A stretch of DNA of 32,000 nucleotides from assembly GCA_000503875.1 (NCBI GenBank), contig CP006913.1, positions 330,001 through 362,000 of the forward strand, given 5' to 3'. The position numbers and the translations under genes were made by a program. Shown here one piece after another: positions 2,475 through 28,181 of the stretch. The notes beneath the pieces are model-generated. The model saw only the letters and a program-made list of their open reading frames with translations, did not search any database and had not been told where the DNA came from. The stretch's first letter is position 1; each line of letters begins with the position of its first letter. The DNA comes from Candidatus Saccharimonadota bacterium (lineage in GTDB: Bacteria; Patescibacteriota; Gracilibacteria; Absconditabacterales; Absconditicoccaceae).

Positions 2475-2551
2475 TGGTGGGTGATATAGGACTCGAACCT
2501 ATGACCCTCTGCTTGTAAGGCAGATGCTCTAGCCAACTGAGCTAATCACCC
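2475..2551 (-). tRNA. tRNA-Val(TAC), CCA encoded
   Basis: Reverse complement folds as a cloverleaf. Acceptor gggtgat/atcaccc, anticodon loop cttacaa, T-loop ggttcgagtcc, 3' CCA present. Confidence 0.9.
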
Positions 2552-2557
2552 AAATAA

Positions 2558-2632
2558 TGGCGGTCTTACGGGGAATTGAACCCCGGTTGCAGGATTGAAA
2601 GTCCCGTGTCCTAACCACTAGACGATAAGACC
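2558..2632 (-). tRNA. tRNA-Glu(TTC), CCA encoded
   Basis: Acceptor ggtctta/taagacc, anticodon loop ctttcaa, T-loop ggttcaattcc. Confidence 0.9.
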
Positions 2633-2639
2633 ATGCAAA

Positions 2640-2716
2640 TGGCGGAATGGAAGGGACTCGAACCCTCGACCTCCTGCGTGACAGGCAGGCGTTCTAACCA
2701 GCTGAACTACCACTCC
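2640..2716 (-). tRNA. tRNA-Asp(GTC), CCA encoded
   Basis: Acceptor ggagtgg/ccattcc, anticodon stem-loop cctgc-ctgtcac-gcagg, T-loop ggttcgagtcc. Confidence 0.9.
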
Positions 2717-2856
2717 GTATAATGTAATAATTTTTTACTCCTAATTAAGATGGTTAGTCTCCAAAAAGATGTATCTGTTCAAGCGTTCCTTGTCCTGAAG
2801 GATGAAGGATAACCAGCTGAACTACCACTCCGTGTAATGTAATAATTTTTTACTCC
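2696..2856. repeat. 46-nt direct repeat in two copies (2696-2741 and 2811-2856, 45/46 identical). Each copy holds the first ~21 nt of tRNA-Asp plus 25 nt of its upstream flank.
   Basis: aaccagctgaactaccactccgt[a/g]taatgtaataattttttactcc is read twice, 115 bp apart. Confidence 0.9.
2811..2831 (-). pseudogene. tRNA-Asp 5' fragment (acceptor 5' strand plus D-arm 5' half only)
   Basis: Identical to tRNA-Asp positions 1-21. It diverges inside the D-loop and has no anticodon or T arm downstream. Confidence 0.75.
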
Positions 2857-2863
2857 GTATTAA

Positions 2864-2938
2864 TGGAGCCAACTATCGGACTTGAACCGATGACCCACCG
2901 CTTACAAGGCGGTAGCTCTACCGCTGAGCTAAGTTGGC
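2864..2938 (-). tRNA. tRNA-Thr(TGT), CCA encoded
   Basis: Acceptor gccaact/agttggc, anticodon stem-loop accgc-cttgtaa-gcggt, T-loop ggttcaagtcc. Confidence 0.9.
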
Positions 2939-2963
2939 ATCAAAGAAGCCTTAGGCTCCTTAT

Positions 2964-3233
2964 TTATTTCGTTTTTTGAGCAACATTAAACATTTTTGCT
3001 ACTCTAGATTTTCTTCTTGCTGCGGTTTGTTTTTTTAAAACTCCAACTTTACAAGCTTTATCTATGTATTTATAAAGGTTTTGTACTTCTGTTTCAGCAA
3101 CAACAACACCTTTAGTTAAATTTTTCATAAATTTTTTGATAGCCATTTTCATTCTCAACTTAAAATCATAATTTCTTTGTTGAAGTTTAAGTGATCTTGA
3201 AAGCGCTTTTTTTGCTGATTTAGTAACTGGCAT
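2964..3233 (-). CDS. rpsT: 30S ribosomal protein S20
   Basis: MPVTKSAKKALSRSLKLQQRN... is a typical S20 N-terminus. I chose the internal ATG at 3233 rather than the track start at 3260. TAA stop. Confidence 0.85.
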   Translation of the reverse strand: MPVTKSAKKALSRSLKLQQRNYDFKLRMKMAIKKFMKNLTKGVVVAETEVQNLYKYIDKACKVGVLKKQTAARRKSRVAKMFNVAQKTK

Positions 3234-3269
3234 AGAGGGACAATAATAATTAAAATACAAATTATAATA

Positions 3270-3342
3270 CTCCGAGGGTGGGACTCGAACCCACGACCCA
3301 GTGGTTAACAGCCACTTGCTCTACCAACTGAGCTACCGCGGA
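3270..3342 (-). tRNA. tRNA-Asn(GTT), no CCA encoded
   Basis: Anticodon stem-loop agtgg-ctgttaa-ccact, T-loop ggttcgagtcc. One C-U mismatch in the acceptor stem. Confidence 0.8.
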
Positions 3343-3430
3343 CTAGCTGGATACAAAAAAATCCAAATTTTAGCGAACGACTTTATAGGAATTCAAATTC
3401 ATTTTTCAATAGATTCTGTATTATTTTATA

Positions 3431-3511
3431 TACCGGGGACAGGACTCGAACCTGCACACCGTAGGGCACTTGGTTCTAAGCCAAGCATGTCTACCATTCC
3501 ATCACCCCGGC
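3431..3511 (-). tRNA. tRNA-Leu(TAG), long variable arm
   Basis: Anticodon stem-loop cttgg-cttagaa-ccaag, variable arm tgccctacggtgt, T-loop ggttcgagtcc. Confidence 0.85.
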
Positions 3512-3519
3512 ATCTAATA

Positions 3520-3592
3520 CTCAGGAGATAGGACTCGAACCTATAACCACCTGATTCAGAGTCAGGTGCTCTACCAATTAAGCTACCCCTGA
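3520..3592 (-). tRNA. tRNA-Gln(CTG)
   Basis: U1:A72 with G73, anticodon stem-loop cctga-ctctgaa-tcagg, T-loop ggttcgagtcc. Confidence 0.8.
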
Positions 3593-3638
3593 ACACCAAG
3601 ATTATTTATTTTTAGTTTATTATAATTTTTGCGGAGGA

Positions 3639-3700
3639 TGGAGTCGAACCACCTGTCTTCGGGTTATGAGCCCAACGAGATACCGTTTCTCTACCCCGCA
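3639..3700 (-). tRNA. tRNA-Met(CAT). The anticodon stem is initiator-like (three G:C pairs); Ile2-lysidine identity is not excluded.
   Basis: Anticodon stem-loop ttggg-ctcataa-cccga, T-loop ggttcgactcc, acceptor tgcgggg/ctccgca. Confidence 0.75.
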
Positions 3701-3709
3701 ATATTTTCC

Positions 3710-3780
3710 CTGGGGAACTAGGATTCGAACCTAGACTGACGGAGTCAAAGTCCGCTGTCCTACCGTTAGACGATTCCCCA
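3710..3780 (-). tRNA. tRNA-Gln(TTG)
   Basis: Acceptor tggggaa/ttcccca, anticodon loop ctttgac, T-loop ggttcgaatcc. Confidence 0.85.
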
Positions 3781-3870
3781 ATGCAATCTCAAAAAATACA
3801 TATCCAAACGGATCGTGATGCCTGTATAGAGATTTTGTTTTCTATTTCAAGCTCTTTTTTAAAGAAAAAT

Positions 3871-3920: not shown

Positions 3921-4553
3921 TTATTGTTGAATTGGAGCAACTGGTTGTTGGATTGGAGCAACTGGTTGTTGAATTGGGGCAACTGGTTGTTGAATTGGGG
4001 CAACTGGTTGTTGAATTGGGGCAACTGGTTGTTGAATTGGAGCAACTGGTTGTTGAATTGGAGCAACTGGTTGTTGGATTGGAGCAACTGGTTGTTGGAT
4101 TGGAGCAGCATTAGCTTGATAATTTTGTGATAGGAATTGTTGTGTATCAAGTGGAGCTGTTGGTTTTTCAGCAACATAATTTTGAGCACCTTCCAAAACA
4201 GTTGATGTTCCTGTTTGTACTATTTGGTTAGCTTGATTTCCTATTGCATCAAGAGTATTACCTATTTTATTAAAAAAATTTGCTCAAGGCATATTCTGTA
4301 CTTGTGGTTGTTGAATTTGTACTCAACCTTGTATTGGTTGTTGTTGAGAAACAACTGGTGTAGCTGGTACTGGTGCTGCAATTTTGGCAATAAAATCAAC
4401 AATTCATTTTAATATTTTATCAAAAACTCAATCTTCTTGAACAACAGGTTGAATTTGTTGTTGAGGAATTTGTTGAGGCATATTTTGAATTGGAGCAACA
4501 GGTTGTTGAATTACCCCATTAGCTTGTTGATTTTGGATTTGCATAGGATCCAT
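3921..4553 (-). CDS. Q/P-rich low-complexity protein (210 aa) with a C-terminal PVAPIQQ heptad array
   Basis: ATG at 4553 is in frame with track ORF 3921-4196. The gap contains 4 TGA and no TAA or TAG. TAA stop at 3921-3923. Confidence 0.7.
3924..4112. repeat. 21-bp tandem repeat, about 9 copies (ttgttgRattggRgcaactgg), encoding PVAPIQQ on the minus strand
   Basis: Direct reading shows units starting at 3924, 3945, 3966 ... 4092, with only 2 variable positions per unit. Confidence 0.95.
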
Positions 4554-5811: not shown

Positions 5812-6741
5812 TTATTTTTCCTGTGTTTTATCATGCTTTTTTATGTTATATCTTATGATATATTTCTCAAAGATATTAGGAACCTTTATCATGATAGCGG
5901 TCTCTTCGGTATTACCAAAGAGCTCATTGAAAATAGTTCCAAAACATTGCATACCAATAGACAAACGACCATAAAGAGCAATAAGTATAGATGCATTAAA
6001 CCTTTTTGCCAACATACTAAAATCCTCTTCAAAGTTATCTGTAAAAGTAACATCTACAGAAAGGTCACCATATGGACGAATAAGTCCATATTCACCTTTG
6101 GGCTTAATCAAAGAACTATTCTTTGATGGAAAGTATCTATCGAAAAAATGATAAATAGGATCTAAATTACCCAATTGAGGATAAAGGGTAACTTTCCCAA
6201 TAAGAAATGTTACTGGATTGGTCCAAGATATAGATCCTGAATTTTTTTTATTTATCCAGAATCCTAATCCATCAAATAAAGCTTCCAAAGCAAATGACCT
6301 CTGATAATCTGGTTGAACAAATGCCCGTCCGAATTCAGCAGTATAAGGGAGATATTTTTCCACAAACCTTTTGCTTAAATGAAAATAGCTTGTTAATGGA
6401 GAAAATGATTCCTTATTGATTGCCGAATTACGAAGTTTTAACAATGTTTGGATTCGATATCCACCAGCAATTTCATGTTTTTTTGGATCCCAAATAACCA
6501 ATTGTTCGAAATATTTATCGAATTCATCAATATCAGTAGATTTACCAGTTCCTGCCTTTATGTGCCTAAAAGAAATCTCTCTCAGTCGTCCAATTTCCTT
6601 CATAACAGAAGGGCATTGTTCAGGCGTTACAACATAAATTTCAAAACCACCACGATTTGACGTTTTCAGTAGAAATTCTTCTCTTAATTCTGCTCTGAGA
6701 AGATGTCTGGGTTGCGGATCGATAATTTTTTCTTCATTCAT
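5812..6741 (-). CDS. GNAT-superfamily N-acyltransferase of the OlsB / hemolysin-like type (Acetyltransf_5-like), 309 aa
   Basis: Intact ATG..TAA ORF with no TAA, TAG or TGA before its TAA stop. Motifs read: IGRLREISF, HEIAGGYRIQTL, AEFGRAFVQPDYQ. It contains no TGA, and its CGA/CGG codons fall on conserved Arg positions. Confidence 0.75.
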   Translation of the reverse strand: MNEEKIIDPQPRHLLRAELREEFLLKTSNRGGFEIYVVTPEQCPSVMKEIGRLREISFRHIKAGTGKSTDIDEFDKYFEQLVIWDPKKHEIAGGYRIQTLLKLRNSAINKESFSPLTSYFHLSKRFVEKYLPYTAEFGRAFVQPDYQRSFALEALFDGLGFWINKKNSGSISWTNPVTFLIGKVTLYPQLGNLDPIYHFFDRYFPSKNSSLIKPKGEYGLIRPYGDLSVDVTFTDNFEEDFSMLAKRFNASILIALYGRLSIGMQCFGTIFNELFGNTEETAIMIKVPNIFEKYIIRYNIKKHDKTQEK

Positions 6742-9053: not shown

Positions 9054-12000
9054 TTAATCTATTTGCAACTCTATTTTTTGGAGAGGTTGTTTTGTTGCTA
9101 TTTTATTCTTTGATCTAATAAATAAACCCAAGGAAATAATTCTTCTAACCTTAGCAATTTCTTCAAGCAATGTCTTGTTTATATAGTGATGTGACCAAAG
9201 TGGTAAGTGAGTTAAATGAATAGATTCTATAGATTGTTTTCCTACAAATTGTTGTAATTGCAAAAATAAATGTTCACTAATAAATGGTGCAAATGAAGCA
9301 CAAAGTTTGATATAATGAAGAAGTACGGTATATAATGTTGCATATGCTGCATATTTATCTCAATCCATTCCTGATGCCCAGAATCTTCTTCTCGATCTTC
9401 TAATATACCAATTATTGAGTTTATCGATAAATCCAAGAGCTGCTTTTGCTCCAAGATCAAGTTGATATCCATCCATTGCTTGTTCTAATTCTTGAGCAGT
9501 ATCATGAAGGGCAGCTAAAATCCATTTATCGAGTTCATTATTGATGGTATAGGTAGGAATAGATATACTTTCTAGATGTTTAAGATGTAATTTTTCTGAT
9601 GTTGCATATGCTGTTTGCCAAAGGGTATCAATATAGGTTTCATGTGAAATTAAGAGAATATTTTTTCCAGAATATTGTTGTTTGATTTCTTCATAAAAAT
9701 TCAAAATTCATTCATTATCACCAAGTCTTTCATCAACAATTAATTTTATGTCTTTTGTTCTATAGGTAGTCATTGTTTTCTTGATACTTTCAGCAGTCTG
9801 TTGTGCTCTTGTCAAGGATGAACAAACAATTACGTCAGCATCTATTCTCAAAATCTGTTCAATGAAATTTGCCTGATGTAAACTAGATTCTCATTGGGTA
9901 GTGAGTTTTCCATCGTCACCAGCATCCGCTTGTGCATGTCTCATTACATAAAGATTTGGCGTTGTATACAAAAAATTATCTACTTTTGCATAGGTTTCAA
10001 AAAATTTATAAGCATTTGTTAATGCACTAGTGAAATCTTTATATACTTGATCAACTCCTTTTTCACTAAATCTCACGGGTTCTGCCTTTACCGCAGGGGA
10101 GGAAAGGAGATACATTCTATATGCATCAGAACCATATTTTTCGAAAAGTGTTTGCGGCTCTGGATAATTTTTGAGTTTCTTGGACATTTTCTTACCATCT
10201 TCGGCAAGTACCATACCATTAATAATCACATTATTGAAAGAATTTTGTTTCATAACAGCATTTCCTACGACATGCATAGTTCTAAACCAACCTCTTGTTT
10301 GGTCAAGTCCTTCGATAATAAAGTCCGCAGGATAAATAAATTGTTTTGCTCCTTTTGTAGAATACGTTTGATTTCCTAAATAATTAGCTTGCCCAAATGG
10401 CATAGCTCCTGATTCAAACCAACAATCCATAACTTCCAAAATTCTTTTATAGACGTTTCCTTCAATAGTAAACCGATAATTGTCTACATATGGTTTGTGT
10501 AAATCTACCTGCTTATTATAAGTATTATCCCAATAATGAATTCCAAATTCTGCATTTTCCAACAAAAGTTCTTTTCTATGTGAATGATAATCTTTTTGAG
10601 CAAAAGAATTTCTACACATTGCCATAGTATCATTGTGGGCAACATAAAGAAGAGTTGCACTTGGGTATTTTGTATTCCAATCAGCAACACAAGTTTTGGT
10701 CCTTTCTAACATCAAAGAAACGGTTTCTCATTCATTGGATATTGGTTGTGTTCGGTCATATCGATTCAACGTGTCGCAGCTACAAAATTTATCTTGAATA
10801 TCAGGAGAAAGATGATCAGTAATACGATAATCAATAAAAATATTATTTCAAAGATCAAAAATAGTCTGATTTTTTTTGTCATGGATATAATCCATTATTT
10901 TTCATTCACTCCATAATTTCTGGTAATGTTCAATTTGTTTGTAATACTTGTTTTTTATTTCTTCTACAAGTTTTTTATCATATAATTCTAGCAATGTTGG
11001 CTCAATAGTTAAAAGAGCTCTCTGCAGCGGAGAAAGAACGATAACAAGATTGTTTTTGTCCGTTGTATATTTTACCAGTTGCTTAGGTAATGCCTGTGCC
11101 TGTTTGTTTCCTTCTTCAGAGAGAACTGGTTTTCCGAAGCTATCGCAGAGTTTCTTTTCGTTGTAATCTGTTTTGCCATGTCTAAGAAAGATATTTCTGG
11201 TAATATTCTTAGATCATGTTAATGTGTTAATATATAATTCATCCAAAGTTCATATAACAATCTTTTCTTCTAAATTATTTTCGTTTTCCCAAACAGGAAT
11301 TGGAGATCATCGATATCTATTTCTTGCAAGGTTCCAATCTGGAGCAGAAGAAAGAACATCAGAAAATCTATTTTTGATAGTTTCTGGTACAAATCCAATG
11401 TGATCTGCATTAGGTACGGTAGTTTTGGTAAGTTCTGGTTCTTTGATAAACCAGCTTGTAAGAGCTTTACAAATCAATGGTGTATCACATCTTCGACAAT
11501 GAGGATAAGAGTGACTATATGATTTTTGAAGAACTAATTTTCCTTCTAATTTAAGTCTAGCGATAATGTCTTTGTTGGCATCATAAACTCTGATTCATTG
11601 ATATTCTGGTACTTGATCCGTAAATTCCGCATAATCATTGAGTGGTAAGAAAAGCCAATTTTTGGCATCTTCTCTTGGCAGAAAAGCAGCGACTGCTTCA
11701 AAATCTTCTATACCAAAACTTGGTGCAATATGCACAATTCCAGTTCCATCTTCTGTGCTTACAAAATCAGCTGCTATAACTTTACAAAATTGATCTCTGT
11801 AATTATCAGGAAGTGCTTTTTTGATATACGGAAGAATTGGTTCATAAGAAAGTCAGATTATATGTTCTCATTTGAAAATATTTACTATCAAATATTCTTC
11901 TGGAGATTTATAATATTGTTTGAGTAGAGCTTGTGCAATAATATAATATTCTTTGCTATTTTTATCAAACACCATAACATATTCTATATGTTTTCCTACA

Positions 12001-13178
12001 GCTAAGAAGCTATTTCCTGGTAAAGTCCATGGAGTAGTAGTCCATGCAAGAACATTAACTGTTGCATCTCAATCTGCTTGTAATGTAGATATTTCTTGTG
12101 CTATTTTGTTATGATATACATACAAATCATAAAATTGATGAGTGATTTCATATTCATCATCTATAACTGTTTCCTCGATTTTTACAGCAAAACCAAGTGA
12201 ATTATCAGATTCTATAATTTCTGCCCAAACGCTATGAGTATGTTTTTCTGGTTCAAGATTTTTTGGTTCACCAGTATATTCTACATCTATGATATTTAGA
12301 TTAAATAACCCATGAGGCATAATTTCTTTGAAACTTCCAAGGTTATTGATTTTTGTTACATCAATACCCATCTCTTCTTTTAATTCTTTGCTGACTGTTT
12401 TTTCTAAGCTATCGCCAGTATTAATTTTTCCACCAGGGAAAACATATTTTTGTGCTTTTTTGTGATATAACATAAAAAATTTATTATCTTTTTTGAGTAC
12501 ACAATCCACAACTTGTATAAACCCATCATGAGTTGATTCATATTCAGAAGAAGGTGTTTTGTTTATGGCAAATTTGATAGTGATCGCAGGATCTTGTTTA
12601 TCTTGATATCCTTCATTTACTTCAGAATTAGAAAGCGATGTTGCACAGCTAGGGCAGTACCATTGTACTTTAAATCATTTATATACAAGATTCTGATCAT
12701 ACATATTTTTAAATGACCAAAGCACGGATTCCATAAAATCAAGGTCCATAGTGTAGTATGCATGATCCATATCTGCCCATCTTCCTATACTATCTACAAA
12801 TATTCTCCATTCATCACTAGTAGAACTTACGTATTTTCTACATTCTTCTATAAATTTTTCCATTCAGATTTTTTGTTCGATATCTTTTTTTCCATCGATT
12901 CCCAAAAATTTTTCAACCGCTTTTTCCACAGGAAGCCCATGACAATCTCGTCATCGTTCTCTGTTTACCTTATATCATTTCATAGTTTTGTATCTCAAAA
13001 TTGTGTCTTTCATAGAAGACGCAAGGCCATGTCAAAAATGAGGTGTTCCTGATGCAAATGGAGGACCATCATACGTACGTGATTGAAACATGTCAGATCT
13101 TTGATCCAATGTTTTTTGAAAAATAGTATTGGTTTTCCAATATTCTGTAATTTTGGTAAGAAGTTCTTTTTGATCCAT
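9054..13178 (-). CDS. ileS: Isoleucyl-tRNA synthetase (type-2-like core), 1374 aa, with three inserted accessory domains
   Basis: All five track fragments share one frame. I translated every gap (9264-9359, 9705-9890, 10716-12068, 12510-12674, 12864-13178) and found 18 TGA and no TAA or TAG. Motifs read: PHF-[TGA]-H (HIGH), [TGA][CGA]DCHGLP (GWD), AWTTTPWTLPGN, GTGIVHIAPSFG, SYPHC[CGA]RC, DWNLARNRY[CGA][TGA]SPIPVW, DQTRGWF, KMSKKL, NNWYIRRSRRRFW. Confidence 0.9.
9540..9971 (-). other. IleRS insertion 3: short histidine-phosphatase (SixA/PGAM-like) domain inside the anticodon-binding region
   Basis: LYVMRHAQADAG..., VCSSLTRAQQTAESI and LLISHETY lie between FFETYAKVDNF and NELDKWILAAL. Confidence 0.6.
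10509..11231 (-). other. IleRS insertion 2: histidine-phosphatase (PGAM-family) domain
   Basis: IFLRHGKTDYN, IVLSPLQRALLT, NEGETVSLMLER and LLYVAHNDTM lie between PIPVWENE..GTLDELY and VDLHKPYVDNY. Confidence 0.65.
12054..12569 (-). other. IleRS insertion 1: Nudix hydrolase domain at the entry to the CP1/editing domain
   Basis: The Nudix box GGKINTGDSLEKTVSKELKEEMGI (about 12363-12431) matches GX5(E/D)X7(R/K)EUXEEXGU. It lies between DPAITIKF and VLAWTTTPW. Confidence 0.7.
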
Positions 13179-14657: not shown

Positions 14658-17600
14658 ATGAAAAAACATTGATTATTATTGTTCGTTCTTAGTGCAATTA
14701 GTTTGATAGCATGATTCAGTCATATACAAGCACAACAAACAACTAATTGAGAAATCAGATTAGAAATCAATGCATGAAATTCTTGTTGTATCTATGGTAC
14801 ATGAATCACATTTTGAAATAAAGATGTAAGCTTTTGAATAACTGAATTTTCTGGTGATTTTCTTAATTATTTTGGGGATAATGCTCGAAGCTGTAAAGAC
14901 ATGCAAGGAACGGAAACAGGATGGGCAATGTCCATTAGTATGTCTGGTTCATTAGTAAATGAAAAATGAAACATAATCCCTGCTCAAAATGTAAAAATAA
15001 GCTTTAGTCCAACAGTACAAAAAGCAGGAAATTGTATTCCGTACATAGGATGATGAAATGATATTCCCTTAAGTTGAACAATTCCTTTAGTTCAAAAAAA
15101 TGGAAACATTCCCGAAAATTATGGAAAAATCTGTGTATTAGAAACAACAGGAGTGAATTTGAAAGTGATAACAAATACTGGTCAGTCACCATGAAATTAC
15201 GTAGGAACGTTAGTGATAGATCTTCCAAATTTTATTTCCAATCAATGTGAAATTGGAGATTTACTAGAAGGAACATTACTTGATGCTGAAACAGATGGAG
15301 TTTCGTATCTCTCTTATCCATCATGAATATTTGGAGTAACGCAAAGCTGAGGAAAATTTAATTATAGAGAGGGTGATATTGTTTCGTTTAAACTTGCAAA
15401 TATAGAACTTGGAAGTGTAGCCCCTAGAAACGATAAAAAGGTTTTTGTGCCAGAATTATTAAATCTCCCAAGAACTGCATTTAATGAAGAAAGATCTATT
15501 AAAATATCTCAACTTCTTCAGTCGCTAGATAATGATAATAATCCTGATAATGGAATTATTATAACGCCAGAAGTCATCAACGCAATTACACAAACAGGAA
15601 GTATTGAAAATATTAATATAAATACGGTAGTTACAAGTGTAGGAAAAACTGTAAGAAATACAGTAGATGTTCAAGAACATCTTGGTGGAACATTGAAAGA
15701 ACAATTTATGATAGGAGTATCATTAGTTAAAGATATTAAAATATGAACAAGTTGATCTGATCTTACATGAGTAATGATTTTTGATAATAAAATGTATTTT
15801 GTCTCTGATGATGGAATTCATGGAAAAGAACTTTGGGTAAGTGATGGAACAAATTTATGAACGTATATGCTCAAAGATATCTGGCCAGGAACAATGGGTT
15901 CTTTTCCAGATAAGTTTTTATTGGGAAGTGGTCAATTATTTTTTGTTGCAACTGATGGAGAATATGGAAGAGAATTGCGAAGTACAGATGGAACTGAAGA
16001 AGGAACTCAAATGATTATAGATATTGTCATAAATGGAAATACATCAAGTCCTGGTAATTTTACGATTATGAATAATAAAGTGTATTTTGCAGCAACAGAT
16101 GGAATAAAATGACAAGAATTATGGACTAGTGATGGAACAATAAATGGAACATATATGATTAAAGATATCTATTCTGGTGGAAATGGTTCATCACCTTCAT
16201 TTTTAGTGGAAATGCAATGAAAATTATATTTTTCGGCTTCTAGTCTTTCGGGATCACAGCAATTATGGGTCAGCGATGGAACAGAAAATTGAACTTATGT
16301 AGTTAAGCCATGAGTAAATATATGAGTTCAAGTTCTTACTGTTGCTGAAAATAAAATATTTTTTCTATGAAACATCTCTCCGTATGGACAAGAGCTTTGG
16401 GTAAGCGATGGAACAGAAAGTTGAACATATATGGTCAAAGATATTTATCCTTGAACAAATAATTCATCTATAAGTTATATAAATCCCCAATTAGATAAAA
16501 TATATTTTCAGGCAAATAACGGAATAAATTGATCAGAATTGCGAATAAGTGATGGAACAGAAAGTTGAACATATATGGTAAAAGATATTTATCTTGGTAC
16601 GTGAACATCTTATATTTATAATAGCATGATTTTATGATCAGGTAAGGTGTATTTTAAAGCAACAGATGGTGTTCATGGATATGAACCATGGGTAAGTGAT
16701 GGAACAGAAAGTTGAACGTATATGCCAACAGATTTCATGCCACATTGAAGAAATTGAAGTCCGAGTAACTTAAATTATTGCAATAATAAATTATCTATGA
16801 GAGCTACAGAATGAAGTAGTATTAGATTTTTAGCATATGATTTAGTTAACGAAACAAAAGTAAATTTATGAGCTACAAGTATTGCAGCAGCTTGTTTAAA
16901 TACAACTTTATTTTTATCATTATATAATTGATCATATGGAGTAGAATTATACAAGACAGATTGAACTGTTTGAGGAACAGTTATGGTTAAAGATATAAAT
17001 CCAGGGACGAATAACTGAGATCCCAATAATTTAACAGTAGTTTGAGATAAACTTTATTTTGTAGCAAACAGTTCTTGATACTGAGTAGAATTACGAGTAA
17101 GTGATGGAACAAATATAGGAACATATATGGTCAAAGATATTTATTCTGGAACAACAAGTAGTAGTCCATATAATTTTATAGGATTTTGAGATAAAATTTA
17201 TTTTTTAGCAACTACTTCATGATATGGATATGAATTGCGAGTAAGTGATGGAACTAATGGAGGAACATATATGATGAAAGATATCTATTCTGGAAATACT
17301 ACTTCATCAATAAGTAATCTTATAGTATATTCAGGAAAACTTTATTTTAGTGCAAATAATTGAATTAATTGAGCTGAGTTACGAGTAAGTGATGGAACAG
17401 AAACATGAACATATATGGTAAAAGATATTTATTCTGGTAATAATAATTCTAGTCCAAGCAACTTTATTATTTACTTAGATAAATTATATTTTAGAGCAGA
17501 TAATAATACAAATTGAGTAGAATTATGGACAAGTGATGGAACAGAAAGCGGTACGTATATGGTAAAAGATATTTATTCTGGAAGTAGTGATTCATATCCT

Positions 17601-19562
17601 GCTAATTTAACTATTTTTTGAGATAAAATTTATTTTTGAGCACAAAGTTCATGAAGTTGATATGATTTATGGACAAGTAATGGTACAGAAACTGGAACAT
17701 ACATAGTTTATAATAGTTTGTCGCCAAATTATATAACGGTATTTTGAAATAAATTGTATTTTTCAGCCTATAATTCATTATATTGACAAGAACTATGGAC
17801 TAGTGATGGAACAGAAATTTGAACGTATATGGTCAAAGATATTTATACGTGAACAAATAATTCAGTACCATGATCATTTACATCAGCATGAGATGAATTA
17901 TTTTTCTCTGCTAATGATTGAATACATGGACAAGAATTACGAGTTACAGATGGAACAGAGTGATGAACACATTTATTTGATGATATTAGTCCTGATGGAA
18001 ATTATTTAGACTTTACCTTACTTGGAATACAAGAAGATAAAATATATTTAAGAGCAAGTTTTTTGACACAAACATGAATGGAATTATATATTTCACAAGA
18101 TGAATTTCAGTCCATGTCTTTGGTTAAAGATATATATGTATGACGAAACGCTAATTCAAGTCCAAGTAATTTTATAATTAATTGAGGTAAAGTATATTTT
18201 ACTGCATATGCTGCTGGATATTGAATAGAATTGTGGGAAACAGATTGAACAGAAAATGGAACTCAATTAGTCAAAGATATAAACCCATGAGCAGCAAGTT
18301 CAAATCCATATACTTTGATACCAAAATGAGATAATATTTTCTTTAAGGCAACGACATCTACTAACTGACAGGAACTTCGAATGACAGATTGAACAGAATG
18401 ATGAACCAAATTAGTCAAAGATATATATCCGGGTACAACAAGTTCAAGCATTGATTATCTTGTTGCAAATGATGATGCTCTTTATTTTTTTAGGGCAGAC
18501 AACGGCCTTGATTGATTAGAACTGTGGACTAGTGATGGAACAACTAATGGGACAACTCTAGTTAAAGATATATATATAGATTGATTAACATCTACTCCAA
18601 CACCAGAAGTTTTTATAAATAATAAATTATATTTTTCAGCTGCCGATAATAGATGACGTGAATTACGAACAAGTGATGGAACAAGTTGAGGTACTTCCTT
18701 ATTGAAAGATATAAATACAAGTGCTGGTTTAAATAGTAATCCATATAATTTTACAAAGTTATGAAATATTACATATTTTGCAGCTTGAGATGGAATAAAT
18801 TGAACAGAGTTACGAAGAAGTGATGGTACAGTTTGATGAACGTATATAGTTAAAGATATTTATGTCTGAGCAAATTATTCATCAACACCAAATAATTTAA
18901 CAGTTATGGATGATAAAATATATTTTGCAGCAAATAGCTCTTGATATTGAGTAGAATTATGGATTACCGACGGAACAAATGGATGAACACAAATAATAAA
19001 AGATATTTATTCATGAGCTAGTTCTTCATCACCTGTTAATTTAAGGGTTGCATGAGATAAAATATATTTTGCTGCAAATAATAATTATGGACAAGAATTG
19101 CGAGTAAGTGATGGAACAGCAAATGGTACTCAAATGATAAAAGATATCTACTCAGGAGCTAATAGTTCAAATCCACAAATACTTACAGTTATGGATGATA
19201 AAGTATATTTTAGAGCCAATAATTATTATAGTTGATCGGAGCTCCGAGTAACAGATGGAACCATATCTGGAACTGTTTTAGTAAAAGATATAGATCCAAG
19301 ACTCTATTACTCTTCTACTCCAAGTATTTTAACTTCAATCGGAAATAAACTTTATTTCTCAGCAATCAATCAACTCAATGGAAACGAGCTTCGAGTAACA
19401 GATGGTATAATTAATGGAACGGGAACCTATCTTGTAAAAGATCTTTGGAGTGGTTCACAAAATTCAAATCCTTCAAATATTGTTTCGTTAAATAATATTC
19501 TTTATTTCACTGCTCAAGATCAACTCAATTGATTAGAACTTCGAAGATTTGTAGAAGATTAA
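14658..19562 (+). CDS. Secreted giant ELWxxDGT-repeat protein, 1634 aa (signal peptide, ~370-aa N-terminal domain, ~25 repeats)
   Basis: ATG at 14658 and signal-like MKKHGLLLFVLSAISLIAGFSHIQAQ. Frame 3 is held through to TAA 19560-19562. I checked most of the length codon by codon and it contains dozens of TGA and no TAA or TAG. The track shows only 2 short pieces of it. Confidence 0.85.
15780..19559 (+). repeat. About 25 tandem coding repeats of ~50-55 aa. Consensus: ..(K)LYF.A.d...G.EL(W)vSDGT..GT.mVKDIy.G..sS.P.n.
   Basis: The periodic SDGT/TDGT and VKDIY strings were read directly from the sequence. Confidence 0.9.
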
Positions 19563-21049: not shown

Positions 21050-23506
21050 CTATACTCCAACTCTAAAATAAATTTCTTTATCAACTAATTCTCTTTTTGT
21101 TCCCCATTTGAGTGCAGAAATTTGTTTCATAATAGCTACTTTTTCTGGGGTATTAGTTACAGGATCATTATATGGTATTTTACAAGAAATACTAAATGGT
21201 TTTGATGTTGTTCCATTTACACAAAGCTTCATTGCTCATTTAAAAATTTCAGAATTCATAAGATCTGCTTTGGAAAAATCTGGAGCAAATACATTTTCCA
21301 ATACTTCAGCATCATTTGGTCATATTTTAAATGTAAGAAGTGAACCAACGTTACCCAAAATAGTTTTGGAAAGGTCCAATTCTCATCAGAGTCCTTTTTG
21401 TTTTAACTGATCCATATATTGATGTGCCATAGTAAGTCACAATCTATATTTTCTAGATTCAGATAATATACTTTCAAATGATTGAGATACATAATTCTGG
21501 AATTCATCCACATACAAGAAAAATGGTACTCTTTCTTTTGGTTCCATAGAAGCTCTTTTAAGTGTTGCCTGCTTGATTTGCATAGCAATCATTTTTCCAA
21601 TCAATTTACTATTTTCTTCACCAACCAAACCTTTTGCCAATTTACAAAGAATAATTTTCTTTTGTTGCATAGCTTCACCAAAATTAAATGCTGATTTTGG
21701 TTGTCCAATAATATTTCTTACATAGGTACTGGTTGTAAAAGGACCAAATTTTGCTTGGATAAACGGGATAATTTCTGCTTTTTCTCTATCACCCATTTTT
21801 TTATACGTCTTGTTCCACCAAGCAGCAATTACTGGGTTTGTTACATTTCTTATTTTACTTTCTGCATAGGCATCATCAGTAAAGAGTCTCATTATATCTA
21901 CCAAAGTTCATCATTCAGGTTGTTCCATAAGCAAAAAACATGCATTACGGAAGTAATCCTGGATTCTTGGACCAAAGATTTCTTCTCCATACATACTTAC
22001 AAACATTTCAATCAAATCATTTGTTACCACATCTCTTTCATCTTCAGTTTCAGTTCCATCCAAAGGATTGAATGCAAGAGGGTATTCGGTATTGGATAAA
22101 TCAAAATAGATTAGATCATCAATTCTTTCTTTTGGGAATCTATCCATCACAAAATCACATAATTCTCCATGAGGATCAAGAATACAAAATCCATTTCCAG
22201 CTTTCATATCTTCTACTGCTTGAGTTATTAATAAGGTTGATTTACCAGTACCTGTTTGTCCAATAATATAAAGATGTCTAAATCTATCTTCTTGAGTAAA
22301 TCTAATTTCTTTCTTTGTTCAAAGATAGGTATTCCACCCGAGTAATATTCATTTATCTGGCAAATTATCAGGTGCAGATACAATTTTATAATTTTGGAAA
22401 CTAAACCTTGGATTTCTATTAAACTTTGGATGTGGAAAATGGAGTATAGAAGAAAGTTCTTTGATATTTAAAATATGATGTTTTCCAAAAGAAATCATTT
22501 GATTTCGTAAAGAATCTTCACTATCAAATAATCTTTGAGTAAACGACTTAGCAAAAGTTACAATATCTTTTGTATGTTTAAATTTGAATCCATTGAGTCC
22601 TGTATAGGTATATTGGAAAAATGATTTTGCCAAATCATCAATAATTTTTTTGGGTCTATGGGGATCTGGAGAAGTAGCTAACGCCCTAATTTTTACATGG
22701 AAGATTTCATCATTTAATTTTTTATCCAAATCTCCAAGCTGATTCTGAGAGAAACTATAATTTTTTTCTTCTTTATCTTCTTTCTTTTCATCCATTTTGA
22801 AAAACCCAAAGAAGTTACTTAAAAATCATTTTTTAGATTTTTTTGCTTTATCTGTTTGTTCTCTAAGATATTTAAAAAGACTCTCATGAAGCGGTTGTAT
22901 CAATAATTGAAGAGACAATTTTTCATCTACAAATACTTTAGAATAAGCAGATAAAATACTATCCATAGGATCTGCCTCAAATGATTCATAGGTTCTAATA
23001 GGGAAAATATTATCCTTGGTAAGAGTAAATTCTCCTCAATCCATATATTTACCTGTTTCCAAAAGTTTAGGTTGTTCTATAGGCTCCACAACAGCTCCAG
23101 GATAGAAACTTCCAATTGCTTTTTCAAGTGTTTCCAAATAGTCCAAAGGAACAGCTATAATAAATTTAATTACTTCTTTTTCTATAAAAATTTCCATAGC
23201 AACATAATTGTTACCTAGATGTGTGTTTTTCCAGCTATCATCAAAAAGAGCATAAAGATTTTTGTAAATCTGACTCATAACTTCAAGATTTTGTTTCATA
23301 CTTCAAATACTATCTCCAGAATCTCATTCTGATGTTTTAACTATATTTTTTGATATTTTTACTTGAAGAAATCTTAATTTTTTTGTCTGAGATTTTCTAT
23401 GTTGATAAGCTAATTGTACTAAGAAATAATGATAAAGAAAAAATCATCCTATCGAAAGGGCTATAACAAGTATGATAGCAAGTATGATGATATTTTGGAA
23501 ATCCAT
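21050..23506 (-). CDS. TraD/VirD4-like (type IV coupling protein family) P-loop ATPase with an N-terminal TM helix, 818 aa
   Basis: Five track fragments share one frame. I hand-translated the gaps and found 14 TGA and no TAA or TAG. Motifs read: N-terminal MDFQNIIILAIILVIALSIGGFFLY, Walker A GQTGTGKST (22235-22261), ILDPHGEL, Walker B FFLYVDEFQN, and SRKYRLGLTMAHQY. Confidence 0.75.
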
Positions 23507-23593: not shown

Positions 23594-25327
23594 CTAATCT
23601 TCATTTTGTTTCTCTTCATCTTTTCTGTTTTTGAGATATCCTGTCAAATATATCATAATTTCTCTTTTGGTGTTTCTTGTTTTTATATCATTTAATACCC
23701 AATCAAAAGCTTGTTTCAAAAGAATTCAAATTAATTTTGATGGTTGAATATGGAATTGTTTCATAAGCATATCTCCATCCACAGCAAGTTCTTTGATAGT
23801 AAATTGACCTTCTTCATCATTTATTTGCTTAAGTAATTTTCTCAAAACATTCACTTCTTGAAGATCATTATTATTTTGGAGAGGATTGTATTGACCGCGT
23901 CTATCAGCAATAGTAATATCCAAAATATTTTCAACTTGATGATAGCCAGCTTCTGACAAAAATTTTCTAAGTTTTTTCTTGCACTGATCATCGCTTTCTC
24001 CATCAAGAATTTCTTCTGGTTTATGATGATTGGCAACGTATCGAGCAATTTGATCAATTTCTTTGCTAGAAAATCCAAGAGAAATAAAGTCTTTTTTAAC
24101 CAATTCTGGTCATCATTTTCTATGATTCAATGGTCAAGAAAGAATACCTCTAATTTCTTCTTTACTTAAATTATCTTTGTAAGCTGAAAATTGAGCAACT
24201 TTCCCTACATCATGATAGAGCATTGCCAATCTTACCAGATAATTATTATTTATTTTTTGAAGTTCATAAAGGGTAAGAAGTGTGTGGGTATATACGTCAA
24301 AAGGGTGAAATCTTACCGGTTGATGAATGTATTTTGTTGCATAAACAGCAGGAAAGATAATTTGTAATAAATGAGATTCATCAAGTAAAGCAACAAATCC
24401 AAAAGGATCTCCTTTACTAAATATTTTGATAATTTCATCTTTAATTCTTTCTTTGGCAACATGTTCGAGCAAATGATGATTGGTTTTTAATGCATTTCGT
24501 GTTGCTTTGTCAAAGTCAAACAATGTTGTATCTGATTTTTTTTGTTTAAGTTGATGATTGAGAACATTTACAAATCTGAGTCCTCTTAATAATCTAAGTG
24601 CATCTTCTTGGAATCTATGATCAGGGTCACCGACAGCACGAAGTTTCTTTTCGAAAAGATCTTGGATTCCCTTATTGGGATCTATAATAAAATACATAAA
24701 TTCTGATTCATTTCCCAATTTATATTTTTCAATAACAGAAGCTAATTTTTCTTTGTGATATATACCATCTTCAAAGAGGGTAGTGATAATATTAGTATCT
24801 TGAATTATTAATAAATTATGACTAGAGATACCAATTATTCAATTGTTCTTGAGTCATTTTAGTAATTCTTTTTCTTCAATTGCTCAGGAATTTTTGTCCT
24901 CCGATTTTTTATGGGTACTATCAGCAAAAAAATAGAGTGAATTGATGGTGAAATCTCTCCTTTTTGCATCAAGAAGAATATCATTACTTCGATGTATTTC
25001 TTCAGGATGACGAAAATCTTCGTAGCCTCATTCGGTACGAAGAGGGGTTATTTCATATTGAATATTGGTTTTACCTTTTTTGATAAAGGTAATAGTCCCA
25101 AATTTTTCTGTCATAAAATGAGAAAGTCCTATTTTGTTGCTATGATTATAGATATGTATTGGATCTCAACCAAGAGTAACATCAATATCGTTAGGACGTT
25201 GTTCTATTGTTAATAATAGATTTCTTACACATCAACCAACAAGAAAAACAGCAGTTTTGCTCTTAAGTCTTTTTTGGATAAAAGCATGCTGCTTAGCCAA
25301 ATATAATATATTGGGAAAAGAAAACAT
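23594..25327 (-). CDS. cca: CCA-adding enzyme / tRNA nucleotidyltransferase with an HD domain, 577 aa
   Basis: Motifs read: LVG-[TGA]-CVRNLLL, DIDV, RRDFTINSLY, HD region YHDVGK. The track ORF ends at TGA 23726-23728, but the reading frame continues for 44 more codons (GILLKQAFDWVLND...) to TAG 23594-23596. Confidence 0.85.
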
Positions 25328-25811: not shown

Positions 25812-25885
25812 GGGTGAGTAGCTCAATTGGTTAGAGCAGGTCCCTCTTAAGGACAAGGTTCAGGGTTCGATTCCCTGCTCGCCTA
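25812..25885 (+). tRNA. tRNA-Lys(CTT)
   Basis: Acceptor gggtgag/ctcgcct, D-arm agctcaattggttagagc, anticodon loop ctcttaa, T-loop ggttcgattcc. Confidence 0.85.
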
Positions 25886-26822: not shown

Positions 26823-28181
26823 ATGAATGAAAAAAAGATTTTTGTGTTGGATACCAATGTTATCCTTCATGATAAAAAGTGTATTTTCAATTTCAAAGAG
26901 CATGATATTGTAATTCCAACCATTGTCCTTGAAGAATTAGATAAGTTCAAAAAAGGAAATGAAGAACTGAATCATCATGCGAGAGAATTTAGTCGTATTA
27001 TGGATAAATTTCGTAAGAAAAAAGAAGTAAAACCAGGTGAAGAAAACAAATTAATTGCTGCTTTACCAAATGGTGGCGTTTCTTTAGGCCCTGATAAAGG
27101 ATTGATCCAAGTAAAAAGCACTGGAATTATTCCAGAAGAGGTGAAGTCCATTTATTTTGAAGACACTCCTGATAACAGAATTCTAGGATTAGTATTAAAA
27201 CTATCACAGGATGAGACGGTAAAAAGACAAGTCATTCTAATAACTAAAGATATAAATCTGCGAATAAAAGCAGATGTTATAGGCTTAGAGGCTGAAGATT
27301 ATAAAAATGACAAGGTTTCGTTTGAAGGATATCTGGGTAGAGCAACAGTGAAATATCCAGCAAAGAAAATTACGGATATCTTCAAAACCAATCAACAAGA
27401 TGTTGACCCTAGTCTGATTAAATTTTATCCAGATGGAATTCCAGAAAATATGTATTTTATCTTGGACGGAAAGAGTAACTCTGCTTTAGCAAGATATTCT
27501 GAAAAAAAATTGATCTGTGTTGAAAAACAAAACGTTTTTGGGATCAAACCAAGAAATTCAGAACAAACATTTTCTGTTGATGCATTACGTCTTGAACAGG
27601 TTAAATTGGTCTGTTTGTCAGGCAAAGCAGGAACGGGAAAAACATTGCTTGCGATCGCTGCCGGATTGGATTGTCTCAAAAATCAAATGTGTGATCAGAT
27701 TATTATAGCTGCAGCAACGGTTCCACTGGGTAATAAAGAGATTGGATTTTTGCCTGGAGATGCTCAGGAAAAAGTATCTCCGTATATGCAAGGGCTATTC
27801 GATAACCTGGCATTTATTAAGAGACAAATGAGTCTTAAAGACAGAGAATGGGTCGAAAGTGCACAAAAAGATGGAAGAATTTTAATACAACCTTTGGCTT
27901 CTATTCGGGGTCGTAGTTTAAATGACACCTTCTTTATTATTGATGAGTCTCAAAATCTCAACCCTCACGAAGCGAAAACCATTGTAACTCGTGCGGGTCA
28001 AAACACAAAAGTTGTGTTTTGCGGTGATGTGACGCAAATTGATTCACCCTATTTAGATGCATATTCAAACGGATTGTCTCATGTTGTTGCAAAAATGACA
28101 GGGCAGCCAATGTTTGCACATATCGCATTGGAAAAAGGGGAACGAAGTCCGCTCGCTGAATTAGCAGCAACGCTTCTCTAA
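26823..28181 (+). CDS. phoH2: PhoH2-type protein: N-terminal PIN domain fused to a PhoH-like P-loop ATPase, 452 aa
   Basis: I start it at ATG 26823 (MNEKKIFVLDTNVILHD), not at the track TTG at 26730. Motifs read: PIN IPTIVLEELD, Walker A SGKAGTGKT, SIRGRSL, Walker B FFIIDESQN, GERSPLAELAA. No TGA. TAA stop. Confidence 0.85.
   Translation: MNEKKIFVLDTNVILHDKKCIFNFKEHDIVIPTIVLEELDKFKKGNEELNHHAREFSRIMDKFRKKKEVKPGEENKLIAALPNGGVSLGPDKGLIQVKSTGIIPEEVKSIYFEDTPDNRILGLVLKLSQDETVKRQVILITKDINLRIKADVIGLEAEDYKNDKVSFEGYLGRATVKYPAKKITDIFKTNQQDVDPSLIKFYPDGIPENMYFILDGKSNSALARYSEKKLICVEKQNVFGIKPRNSEQTFSVDALRLEQVKLVCLSGKAGTGKTLLAIAAGLDCLKNQMCDQIIIAAATVPLGNKEIGFLPGDAQEKVSPYMQGLFDNLAFIKRQMSLKDREWVESAQKDGRILIQPLASIRGRSLNDTFFIIDESQNLNPHEAKTIVTRAGQNTKVVFCGDVTQIDSPYLDAYSNGLSHVVAKMTGQPMFAHIALEKGERSPLAELAATLL

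Follow-up and report, generated by a model that had tools for sequence, protein, structure and literature searches.

In the 32,000-nucleotide stretch of contig CP006913.1 analyzed here (the window, from a bacterium of the Absconditicoccaceae), the gene for isoleucyl-tRNA synthetase (IleRS), ileS, contains an additional hydrolase domain. Positions 12054-12569 encode a domain with the Nudix fold, which is complete in itself and belongs to an extended MutT/NudG-like subfamily. This is spliced in frame into the short hairpin that starts the CP1 editing domain of a type-2 IleRS, and is attached at the CP1 base through two short linkers. It is not the only addition. The window IleRS bears three hydrolase inserts, one Nudix and two histidine phosphatases, and the architecture is common to the IleRS of SR1/Absconditabacteria. 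The preliminary description of this DNA had reported the Nudix insertion, which is real, but had noticed only this one of the three inserts. The coordinates of all features are summarized in Table 1.

A Nudix domain within a code-25 isoleucyl-tRNA synthetase

Translated with genetic code 25, where TGA is read as glycine, ileS is one unbroken minus-strand open reading frame (ORF) of 1374 aa running from 13178 to 9054. A protein of identical sequence is in GenBank as AHB41141.1, 'Isoleucine-tRNA ligase [candidate division SR1 bacterium RAAC1_SR1_1]', so the sequence is already public under the plain label 'Isoleucine-tRNA ligase'. The full protein scores 741 bits with the TIGR00392 ileS equivalog (cut-off 621.4), and has the IleRS motifs PHFGHG (HIGH), KMSKK, WTTTPWT and GTGIVHIAP. 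Its best match in the PDB is the yeast/Candida cytoplasmic IleRS, a type-2 enzyme, with E = 2e-178.

The assignment of TGA as glycine is well founded. The glycine of the HIGH motif is itself encoded by TGA (PHF[TGA]HG). All 12 TGA codons of the IleRS core fall on columns with invariant glycine in nine orthologues, and at 11 of the same 12 columns there is glycine in two code-11 Chloroflexi IleRS. When all TGA columns are pooled, 130 of 158 orthologue residues are glycine. The two TGA codons flanking the Nudix segment lie where they had been placed before, and are in frame at aa 168 and 370. Under code 11 the ileS region becomes a row of short ORFs, among them the 146-aa ORF beginning with GTG (12069-12509, minus strand) that had earlier been given as the standard-code appearance of the Nudix segment. 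A separate small Nudix gene was rejected, since the frame is continuous under code 25 and the TGA codons fall on invariant glycine columns.

The public records of this gene reflect the choice of code. Code-11 calls split the gene at 9054-13178 into pieces named 'hypothetical protein', 'MutT', 'PhoE' and 'SixA', and code-4 calls turn all 18 TGA codons into tryptophan. GenBank third-party annotation and JGI records label fragments of the Nudix segment 'hypothetical protein' or 'MutT'. The mis-split or mistranslated database entries are P0001, P0121, P0241-P0244, P0273-P0283 and P0301-P0303.

The boundaries of the insert are sharp. DPAITIKF ends at aa 203 and VLAWTTTPWTLPGN begins at aa 376, so that the insert comprises 172 aa (window 12569 to 12054), in good agreement with the earlier estimate of about 170 aa. 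On alignment with yeast cytoplasmic IleRS (9wqs), residues 205-372 of the window protein fall between chain residues 211 and 215. Thus ~167 residues take the place of ~3, directly ahead of the Thr-rich editing peptide.

The insert belongs to the Nudix superfamily by both sequence and predicted structure. Pfam NUDIX (PF00293, gathering score 21.1) matches the insert alone with 36.1 bits (E = 7e-9) and the full protein with 31.6 bits. The sequence matches of the insert among PDB structures include BdRppH, AtNUDX1 and MutT. An AlphaFold2 model of the insert, built with 79 homologues in the alignment, has a mean predicted local distance difference test score (pLDDT) of 88.9 and a predicted TM-score (pTM) of 0.81. 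It is predicted to form an alpha/beta/alpha sandwich with a helix at the position of the Nudix box. In Foldseek the model superimposes on 3ffu, 4dyw, 6ypb and 3a6t (BdRppH, Burkholderia MutT, rose NUDX1 and E. coli MutT) with a root mean square deviation of 1.3-1.9 Å over ~104 residues, probability 1.00 and a target TM-score of 0.68-0.75. Ordinary Nudix proteins were included in the alignment from which the model was made, and it is therefore supporting evidence that is not fully independent. The Nudix domain at the entrance of the IleRS CP1, as it had been described from the letters alone, is borne out by the clean insertion relative to 9wqs and by this profile and fold evidence.

The module is larger than a minimal Nudix domain. 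It has a conserved N-terminal strand (E.T.DGF), then the Nudix fold, and then a C-terminal beta-hairpin and two helices. The hairpin carries a module-specific motif, SDNSLGFAVKIEETVIDD, which is confidently modeled as a beta-hairpin following the Nudix fold. In the form SDN.LGFA.KI..T..DD the motif is also found in a free-standing protein (P0010, see below) and in the IleRS from two other loci (L020 and L022), while by sequence comparison it is absent from ordinary small free-standing Nudix proteins.

On curated models the best-scoring families for the embedded copies and P0010 are MutT, NudG and also PRK08999. Yet the scores of the window insert on the 8-oxo-dGTP diphosphatase MutT models are far below the cut-offs (TIGR00586, 36.4 bits vs 97.9; PRK10776, 37.9 vs 148). 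Other embedded copies reach 30-49 bits on the curated MutT equivalog models, and RppH models (PRK00714) give at most 24 bits vs cut-offs of 116-259. By these scores the insert is a Nudix superfamily member but not a member of the MutT, NudG or RppH equivalogs. Because all the NCBIfam subfamily scores are far under the curated cut-offs, substrate specificity cannot be transferred from these families. We also considered a mobile-element or intein-like insertion, and rejected it on Pfam matches, which were to tRNA-synt_1, NUDIX, His_Phos_1 and Anticodon_1 only and involved no dedicated search for intein motifs.

Conservation of the Nudix active site

The window protein contains VFPGGKINTGDSLEKTVSKELKEEMGI, and within the insert the Nudix box itself is GGKINTGDSLEKTVSKELKEEMGI. 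It reads G-x5-D-x7-K-E-L-x-E-E-x-G-I, with two departures from the consensus that are both conservative, and an intact EUxEE core. We compared 123 aligned inserts of relatives, with domain identity down to ~30%. The box glutamates E265, E268 and E269 are each present in 123/123, and we take them to correspond to positions E53, E56 and E57 of MutT. Thus the preservation of the metal-binding glutamates noted in the preliminary description extends to all of these relatives. K251, the lysine of GGK, is found in 120 of the 123. Glu309, of the LEPEK sequence outside the box, is nearly as well conserved (Table 1), and the surrounding motif GEPKNLEPEKH is common to free-standing MutT/NUDT1-like relatives. 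Glu309 may have a catalytic role, as a fourth metal ligand or as a catalytic acid. Some database entries have no precomputed PF00293 match, but this does not reflect loss of the box. E..EE is kept in all 123 aligned inserts, and only P0235 is without the domain.

The box matches GX5EX7REUXEEXGU completely in 80 of the 123 relatives. Positions 256 and 264 covary, with E/R in 80 sequences, D/K in 28 and H/K in 6, and few mixed pairs. The canonical Glu/Arg pair of Nudix enzymes forms a structural salt bridge, and a salt bridge between positions 256 and 264 would explain the covariation. The box had been called near-canonical. The D-for-E and K-for-R of the window copy constitute a derived variant of an ancestral box that was fully canonical. 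In many database copies there is W where the box needs G, resulting from code-4 translation, and this provides further support for TGA = Gly.

The ratio of nonsynonymous to synonymous substitution (dN/dS, Nei-Gojobori) was calculated for the window gene against four close orthologues. Values were 0.07-0.12 for the Nudix fold, vs 0.05-0.08 for most segments of the IleRS core, and the Nudix domain is under purifying selection. We see purifying selection and invariant metal-binding glutamates in place of the non-conserved, low-complexity segment with degenerate box that had been named as the contrary outcome. Judged by the residues retained, the conservation has the pattern of a working enzyme and not that of decaying filler.

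The insert shares with MutT/NudG-type proteins (BdRppH 3ees/3ffu, AtNUDX1, E. coli MutT) the alpha/beta/alpha fold, the box with its glutamate triad and the GGK lysine, and with NUDT1-like enzymes the GEPxNxEPEK motif. The box of the dominant clade, GGKVEKGETQEQALVRELQEEVGI, is close to that of E. coli MutT, presumably GGKIEMGETPEQAVVRELQEEVGI. The main distinction is that the insert is embedded within another enzyme, whereas the classical proteins are ~130-150 aa in length and lack both the E.T.DGF strand and the C-terminal extension of hairpin and helix. In addition, D and K occupy the Gx5E and RE positions of the window copy.

Further inserts and the spread of the architecture

The second insert, histidine-phosphatase insert 1 (HP1), is also a clean insertion, with 9wqs residues 498 and 499 on either side. 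Its catalytic residues are at least 95% conserved. An AlphaFold2 model has pLDDT 89.1 and pTM 0.88, and its Foldseek neighbors are PhoE, CobC, PspA and glucosyl-3-phosphoglycerate phosphatases. The third (HP2) matches TIGR00249 sixA with E = 1.8e-12 over aa 1075-1190. It is less well conserved than HP1, with catalytic residues retained in 80-95% and dN/dS of 0.17-0.30. The window protein scores 91.6 bits vs 21.7 for histidine phosphatase superfamily branch 1 (PF00300). Together Nudix, HP1 and HP2 add ~550 residues to the IleRS, and each of the three lies in a surface loop whose length differs from one IleRS to another. HP1 matches the CobC/PhoE-like phosphatase half of the RNase H/acid phosphatase PRK07238 (Rv2228c type), but it is inserted inside an aminoacyl-tRNA synthetase (aaRS) and not appended end to end, and the scores are far below the cut-off.

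In the remainder of the protein the similarity to other type-2 IleRS (Thermus thermophilus 1ILE, yeast/Candida 7d5c/9wqs, MupA/MupB) is clear, covering the core, HIGH, KMSKK, CP1 (WTTTPWT, GTGIVH) and the anticodon-binding domain. The window protein differs in its three hydrolase inserts and in its C-terminus. The 9wqs alignment stops near residue 856, and the Chloroflexi references run ~200 aa further. As judged by these alignments, the C-terminal domain of ~200 residues found in type-2 IleRS is absent. Nor is it encoded next door, as there is no DUF5915 or other separate IleRS piece among the ORFs of the window. The protein is not of the MupA or MupB family, scoring 517 and 538 bits with NF000257 and NF000258 vs a cut-off of 1900.

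The architecture is widespread in this group. IleRS of 1370-1379 aa with the same insert are present in eight species-level metagenome-assembled genomes of the GTDB and in one JGI contig, with 46-86% identity. A collection of 5.8 billion proteins contains >120 clusters of 1340-1421 aa that combine PF00133, PF00293, PF00300 and PF08264. Those with a named source belong to Absconditabacteria, Absconditabacterales, Absconditicoccaceae or SR1, and the only annotation given to the clusters is 'class I tRNA ligase family protein'. Assemblies made independently (NCBI, JGI, ENA and Logan) show the identical architecture.

An exhaustive HMMER search with the insert through 1.84 billion representatives, the loci being re-translated with code 25, revealed intermediate forms having fewer inserts (Table 1). 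In a neighbor-joining tree of 780 core columns rooted on Chloroflexi IleRS, the L020 sequence branches first and then that of L022, with the crown group nested within. The tree is crude and the outgroup distant, but it suggests, as a working hypothesis, that Nudix was gained first, then HP2 and then HP1. The C-terminal piece of the split L020 gene (10465-11184; DUF5915) is preceded by a transposase-like gene, a free-standing Nudix and an NYN gene.

One IleRS has both phosphatases and no Nudix domain. P0235 comes from a single 5-kb Logan contig (L016 152-3721). It lies deep within the crown group, and its nearest relatives, with 84% core identity, bear the insert. Its position beside insert-bearing relatives indicates a secondary and precise loss of the Nudix domain. 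Since so close a relative does without it, the domain is not needed for aminoacylation as such.

The reverse situation is found in P0010, a free-standing protein with a canonical box, the SDNSLGFAVKVDGTITND motif and ~45 additional C-terminal residues. As it carries the whole module, the cassette exists also as a standalone protein, and its possession of the hairpin DN.LGFA.KI..T..DD rules out that this is an adaptation for docking to IleRS. Of two further candidates for a free-standing form, P0317 and P0318 (~166 aa), the latter is a code-11 fragment of an embedded copy.

Nudix domains are also found within leucyl-tRNA synthetases (LeuRS) of TGA = Gly organisms. In the LeuRS of L019 (P0330), residues 224-455 lie between residues 240 and 241 of Thermus LeuRS, immediately ahead of VYTTRPET, the LeuRS counterpart of WTTTPWT. 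This first insert contains the extended cassette known from IleRS (ETTDDGF ... IVLDD), here with a box that is degenerate (E to M, R to N), and the protein has a second Nudix of a different lineage after the editing core. A metagenome scan gave two further LeuRS, L023 and L024 (both code 25), neither of which has a CP1-entry insert, and L019 is the sole example so far. L023 has a Nudix with canonical box after the editing domain, and L024 has one after the SPIPVYY strand, the position that HP1 takes in IleRS. Nudix insertion within class Ia synthetases thus recurs in TGA = Gly lineages, and the exact loop varies. A requirement of the Nudix domain for adjacency to the editing peptide is weakened by L023 and L024. 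The placement beside the editing site that had been emphasized earlier is seen in the window protein, but the exact site is probably not essential. Related Nudix domains also occur near residue 800 of P0332, P0342 and P0369, large proteins of ~1140-1210 aa with DUF5661.

A curated family, NF040702 (ileS_w_GNAT), provides a precedent for an additional enzymatic domain in IleRS. Its profile has ~190 extra positions between the DPxxxxF strand (~221) and WTTTPWT (~414). These are coordinates of the profile and not of member sequences, and they suggest that the extra domain occupies the same CP1-entry loop as the Nudix; if so, this loop would be a hot spot for domain insertion. The inserted domain there is a GNAT and not a Nudix, and the window protein scores 268.8 bits vs 1999 with no acetyltransferase match in Pfam.

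Table 1. Features of the window and of related loci. Positions are those of the window unless another locus is named.
Feature	Position	Strand	Size or residues	Basis and remarks
ileS, type-2 (eukaryote-like) IleRS	9054-13178	-	1374 codons + TAA	18 in-frame TGA = Gly; code-25 translation
In-frame TGA, Gly168	12675-12677	-	aa 168	Upstream of insert; column invariant Gly in orthologues and Chloroflexi references
Extended Nudix module	12054-12569	-	aa 204-375	Pfam NUDIX, AlphaFold2, Foldseek, alignment to 9wqs
Nudix box GGKINTGDSLEKTVSKELKEEMGI	12363-12434	-	aa 249-272	vs GX5EX7REUXEEXGU: D256 for E, K264 for R
Glu309 of LEPEK	12252-12254	-	aa 309	Outside box; candidate fourth metal ligand or catalytic acid; 121/123 relatives
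Hairpin motif	12156-12209	-	aa 324-341	L328, D341 and neighbors at least 95% conserved
In-frame TGA, Gly370	12069-12071	-	aa 370	Near insert end; terminates spurious 146-aa code-11 ORF (code-25 vs code-11 reading)
Thr-rich editing peptide WTTTPWT	12024-12044	-	aa 379-385	Three residues after insert; aligned to 9wqs and isolated Thermus thermophilus CP1 domain 1wk8
HP1	10506-11198	-	aa 661-891	Pfam His_Phos_1; RH..N / R / E / H set intact
HP2, SixA-like	9546-9995	-	aa ~1062-1211	Precedes anticodon-binding domain; inserted between 9wqs residues 666 and 688
Anticodon-binding helical domain	9057-9545	-	Pfam match aa 1217-1368	Pfam Anticodon_1 (PF08264); protein ends directly after
L020/L021 IleRS			994 aa	Nudix only, canonical box; gene split, C-terminal piece incl. 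DUF5915 2.5 kb downstream
L022 IleRS			1196 aa	Nudix + HP2
SR1 crown group IleRS			~1340-1420 aa	Nudix + HP1 + HP2
P0235 IleRS	L016 152-3721		1189 aa	HP1 + HP2; 11-aa linker KITSKTMEQTY replaces Nudix
P0010, free-standing extended Nudix module	L017 99-758		219 aa	TGA = Gly organism; ORF between stops, then opposite-strand gene
L019 LeuRS (P0330)	L019 5001-8540			TGA = Gly organism; bacterial-type, TIGR00396 684 bits

The remainder of the window contains a number of other features. On the minus strand there is a cluster of nine tRNAs at 2475-3781 (Val, Glu, Asp, Thr, Asn, Leu, Gln, Met/CAT, Gln), some of them with spacings of just 6-8 nt, a 210-aa Gln/Pro-rich ORF at 3921-4553 that ends in approximately ten tandem copies of PVAPIQQ, a GNAT-like (Acetyltransf_5) protein at 5812-6741, a VirD4/TraG-like coupling ATPase at 21050-23506, and a CCA-adding/poly(A) polymerase-family enzyme with an HD domain at 23594-25327. 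The plus strand carries a secreted-looking protein of 1634 aa with some two dozen G.ELW.SDGT..GT..VKDI repeats (14658-19562), a lone tRNA-Lys(CTT) at 25812-25885, and a PIN-PhoH protein (26823-28181).

Possible functions of the embedded hydrolase

The residues retained in the insert make it likely that this is a working Mg2+-dependent pyrophosphohydrolase. Glu265, Glu268 and Glu269 with Glu309 would bind metal and activate water, Lys251 would contact phosphate, and the covarying Asp256/Lys264 would stand in for the canonical Glu/Arg pair. Taken as a whole, we favor an active MutT/NudG-like pyrophosphohydrolase tethered to the synthetase as the best explanation, with low confidence in any particular role. 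The substrate would be a nucleotide-type compound present at a class Ia synthetase. Our tentative guess is a dinucleoside polyphosphate of the diadenosine tetraphosphate (Ap4A) type or an (aberrant) nucleoside triphosphate (NTP), and it is rather doubtful. Ap4A arises at aaRSs from aminoacyl-AMP and ATP, the Nudix domain would hydrolyze it, and the histidine phosphatases may process the mononucleotide products further. The aaRSs are a main source of Ap4A, those for Ile, Leu and Val being grouped among the enzymes of low activity, and its degradation is carried out by Nudix hydrolases (PMC10148737). Bacteria of the Absconditabacteria type have small genomes without nucleotide synthesis, and live off host material (PMC8080830). 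The missing synthesis makes a function in nucleotide handling plausible, without explaining the choice of host protein.

A number of observations weigh against an active enzyme coupled to the synthetase. The window clade has a box that is off consensus (E to D or H, R to K), D or N replaces the last Gly in some of the relatives, and the box of the first Nudix in the L019 LeuRS is degenerate. None of the NCBIfam subfamily scores comes near its curated cut-off. Ap4A production by IleRS and LeuRS is weak (PMC10148737), and hydrolysis 'at source' is accordingly not compelling. The occurrence of Nudix domains at several LeuRS loops, and their fusion to unrelated large proteins, may reflect co-expression and not mechanistic coupling. 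Lastly, a further, free-standing Nudix is encoded nearby in the L020 lineage, which means that the embedded copy cannot simply be the one Nudix that the cell possesses.

The departures in the box raise the question of a pseudoenzyme. In this case catalysis would have been lost, and the domain would be a structural module acting as a scaffold for CP1, in binding the acceptor arm of tRNA, or in compensation for the lost C-terminal tRNA-binding domain. D256 and K264 in the window clade, the D or N at the last Gly of some relatives, and the E to M and R to N changes in L019 are all consistent with this, as is the absence from the entire family of the C-terminal domain that contacts tRNA in other type-2 IleRS. 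Moreover the non-catalytic hairpin DN.LGFA.KI..T..DD lies within the part of the insert where conservation is highest. We nevertheless consider it unlikely. Retention of the metal-binding glutamates in 123/123, and of K251 and E309 in at least 97%, at ~30% overall identity, is expected for catalysis and not for a scaffold, and the box that is ancestral and in the majority (80/123) has the canonical form throughout. The hairpin motif is present also in the free-standing copy, and is therefore not a device for docking to IleRS. Finally, the Nudix-only L020 keeps a separately encoded C-terminal domain, which argues that the Nudix did not arrive as compensation.

Alternatively, the domain could be an active MutT-like sanitizer of the nucleotide pool, unrelated to the synthetase, that settled during genome reduction in a loop tolerant of insertions, within a gene that is essential and expressed constitutively. 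The three insert sites are all length-variable surface loops, the LeuRS inserts are at varied loops, related Nudix domains are fused to unrelated proteins, and one lineage dropped the insert while keeping its IleRS. The small genomes lacking nucleotide synthesis (PMC8080830) would also be in keeping with such a passenger. Random parking does not predict the independent and repeated recruitment into class Ia synthetases of two Nudix lineages at three or more loops, including the homologous CP1-entry loop of IleRS and LeuRS, although the enrichment is an apparent one, judged from the synthetases. We regard a passenger as another unlikely explanation.

A role in repair or detoxification in cis is less probable. 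The Nudix and histidine phosphatases would then act in sequence on a nucleotide-linked lesion or poison of class Ia synthetases, for example in removing 3'-pyrophosphate or 3'-phosphate from the CCA ends of tRNA, or in the hydrolysis of inhibitors that mimic aminoacyl-adenylates. A pyrophosphohydrolase and phosphomonoesterases with apparently intact active sites are combined in one protein, and the IleRS insert and one LeuRS insert lie directly before the Thr-rich peptide that lines the pocket for the tRNA 3' end. GNATs of the MccE type detoxify aminoacyl-nucleotide antibiotics, and the IleRS + GNAT family NF040702 appears from its profile coordinates to hold its extra domain in the same loop. 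The proposal is entirely inferential, and we know of no such activity for any aaRS-fused Nudix. The other LeuRS Nudix inserts are far from the editing peptide, and the structural neighbors of HP1 are small-molecule phosphatases. P0235 lost its Nudix and kept both phosphatases, so that the three are not an obligate pathway.

A particular form of such a function would be a two-step 'end-cleaning' or antidote system on the class Ia synthetases of TGA = Gly bacteria, which we regard as a long shot. In the first step the Nudix would cut a group linked through pyrophosphate, and in the second a histidine phosphatase would strip the remaining phosphate. The target would be a toxin-made 3'-pyrophosphorylated CCA end of tRNA or a nucleotide-mimic synthetase inhibitor, with the substrate tRNA or enzyme restored on the spot. 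If true, it would go beyond amino-acid editing as a new form of quality control. Trimming of the 5'-triphosphates of leaderless tRNAs by the Nudix domain is unlikely on indirect evidence, as the nine tRNAs of the window, with their spacing of 6-8 nt, must be cut from a precursor. That the Nudix segment is in reality a small gene of its own, an assembly error or a region that has become pseudogenised, as the 146-aa free-standing ORF under code 11 and the annotation of several databases would have it, can be dismissed given the continuous code-25 frame with TGA at invariant Gly columns, the same architecture in NCBI, JGI, ENA and Logan assemblies, and dN/dS well below 1.

Domain accretion by aaRSs and Nudix hydrolases are each familiar, but the combination is not. 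We found no description of a Nudix or histidine-phosphatase domain inside an aaRS in the full-text literature searched, a body with most subscription journals outside its scope. Without code 25 these genes are shredded, and this corrupts metabolic reconstructions of Absconditabacteria. For an active pyrophosphohydrolase tethered to the synthetase, P0235 as a natural Nudix deletion and P0010 as a free-standing homologue are ready-made controls.

The aaRSs are among the most conserved of enzymes, and foreign catalytic domains are rare in those of bacteria. Here the synthetase retained by a whole candidate phylum has three additional hydrolase active sites that appear to be intact, and a second class Ia synthetase, LeuRS, has gained Nudix domains independently, once in the homologous loop. 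This points to a possible, unrecognized functional connection of class Ia synthetases with the hydrolysis of nucleotides or phosphates in reduced, host-dependent bacteria, which may lie in the turnover of Ap4A or NTPs, the repair of tRNA ends, or resistance to inhibitors.

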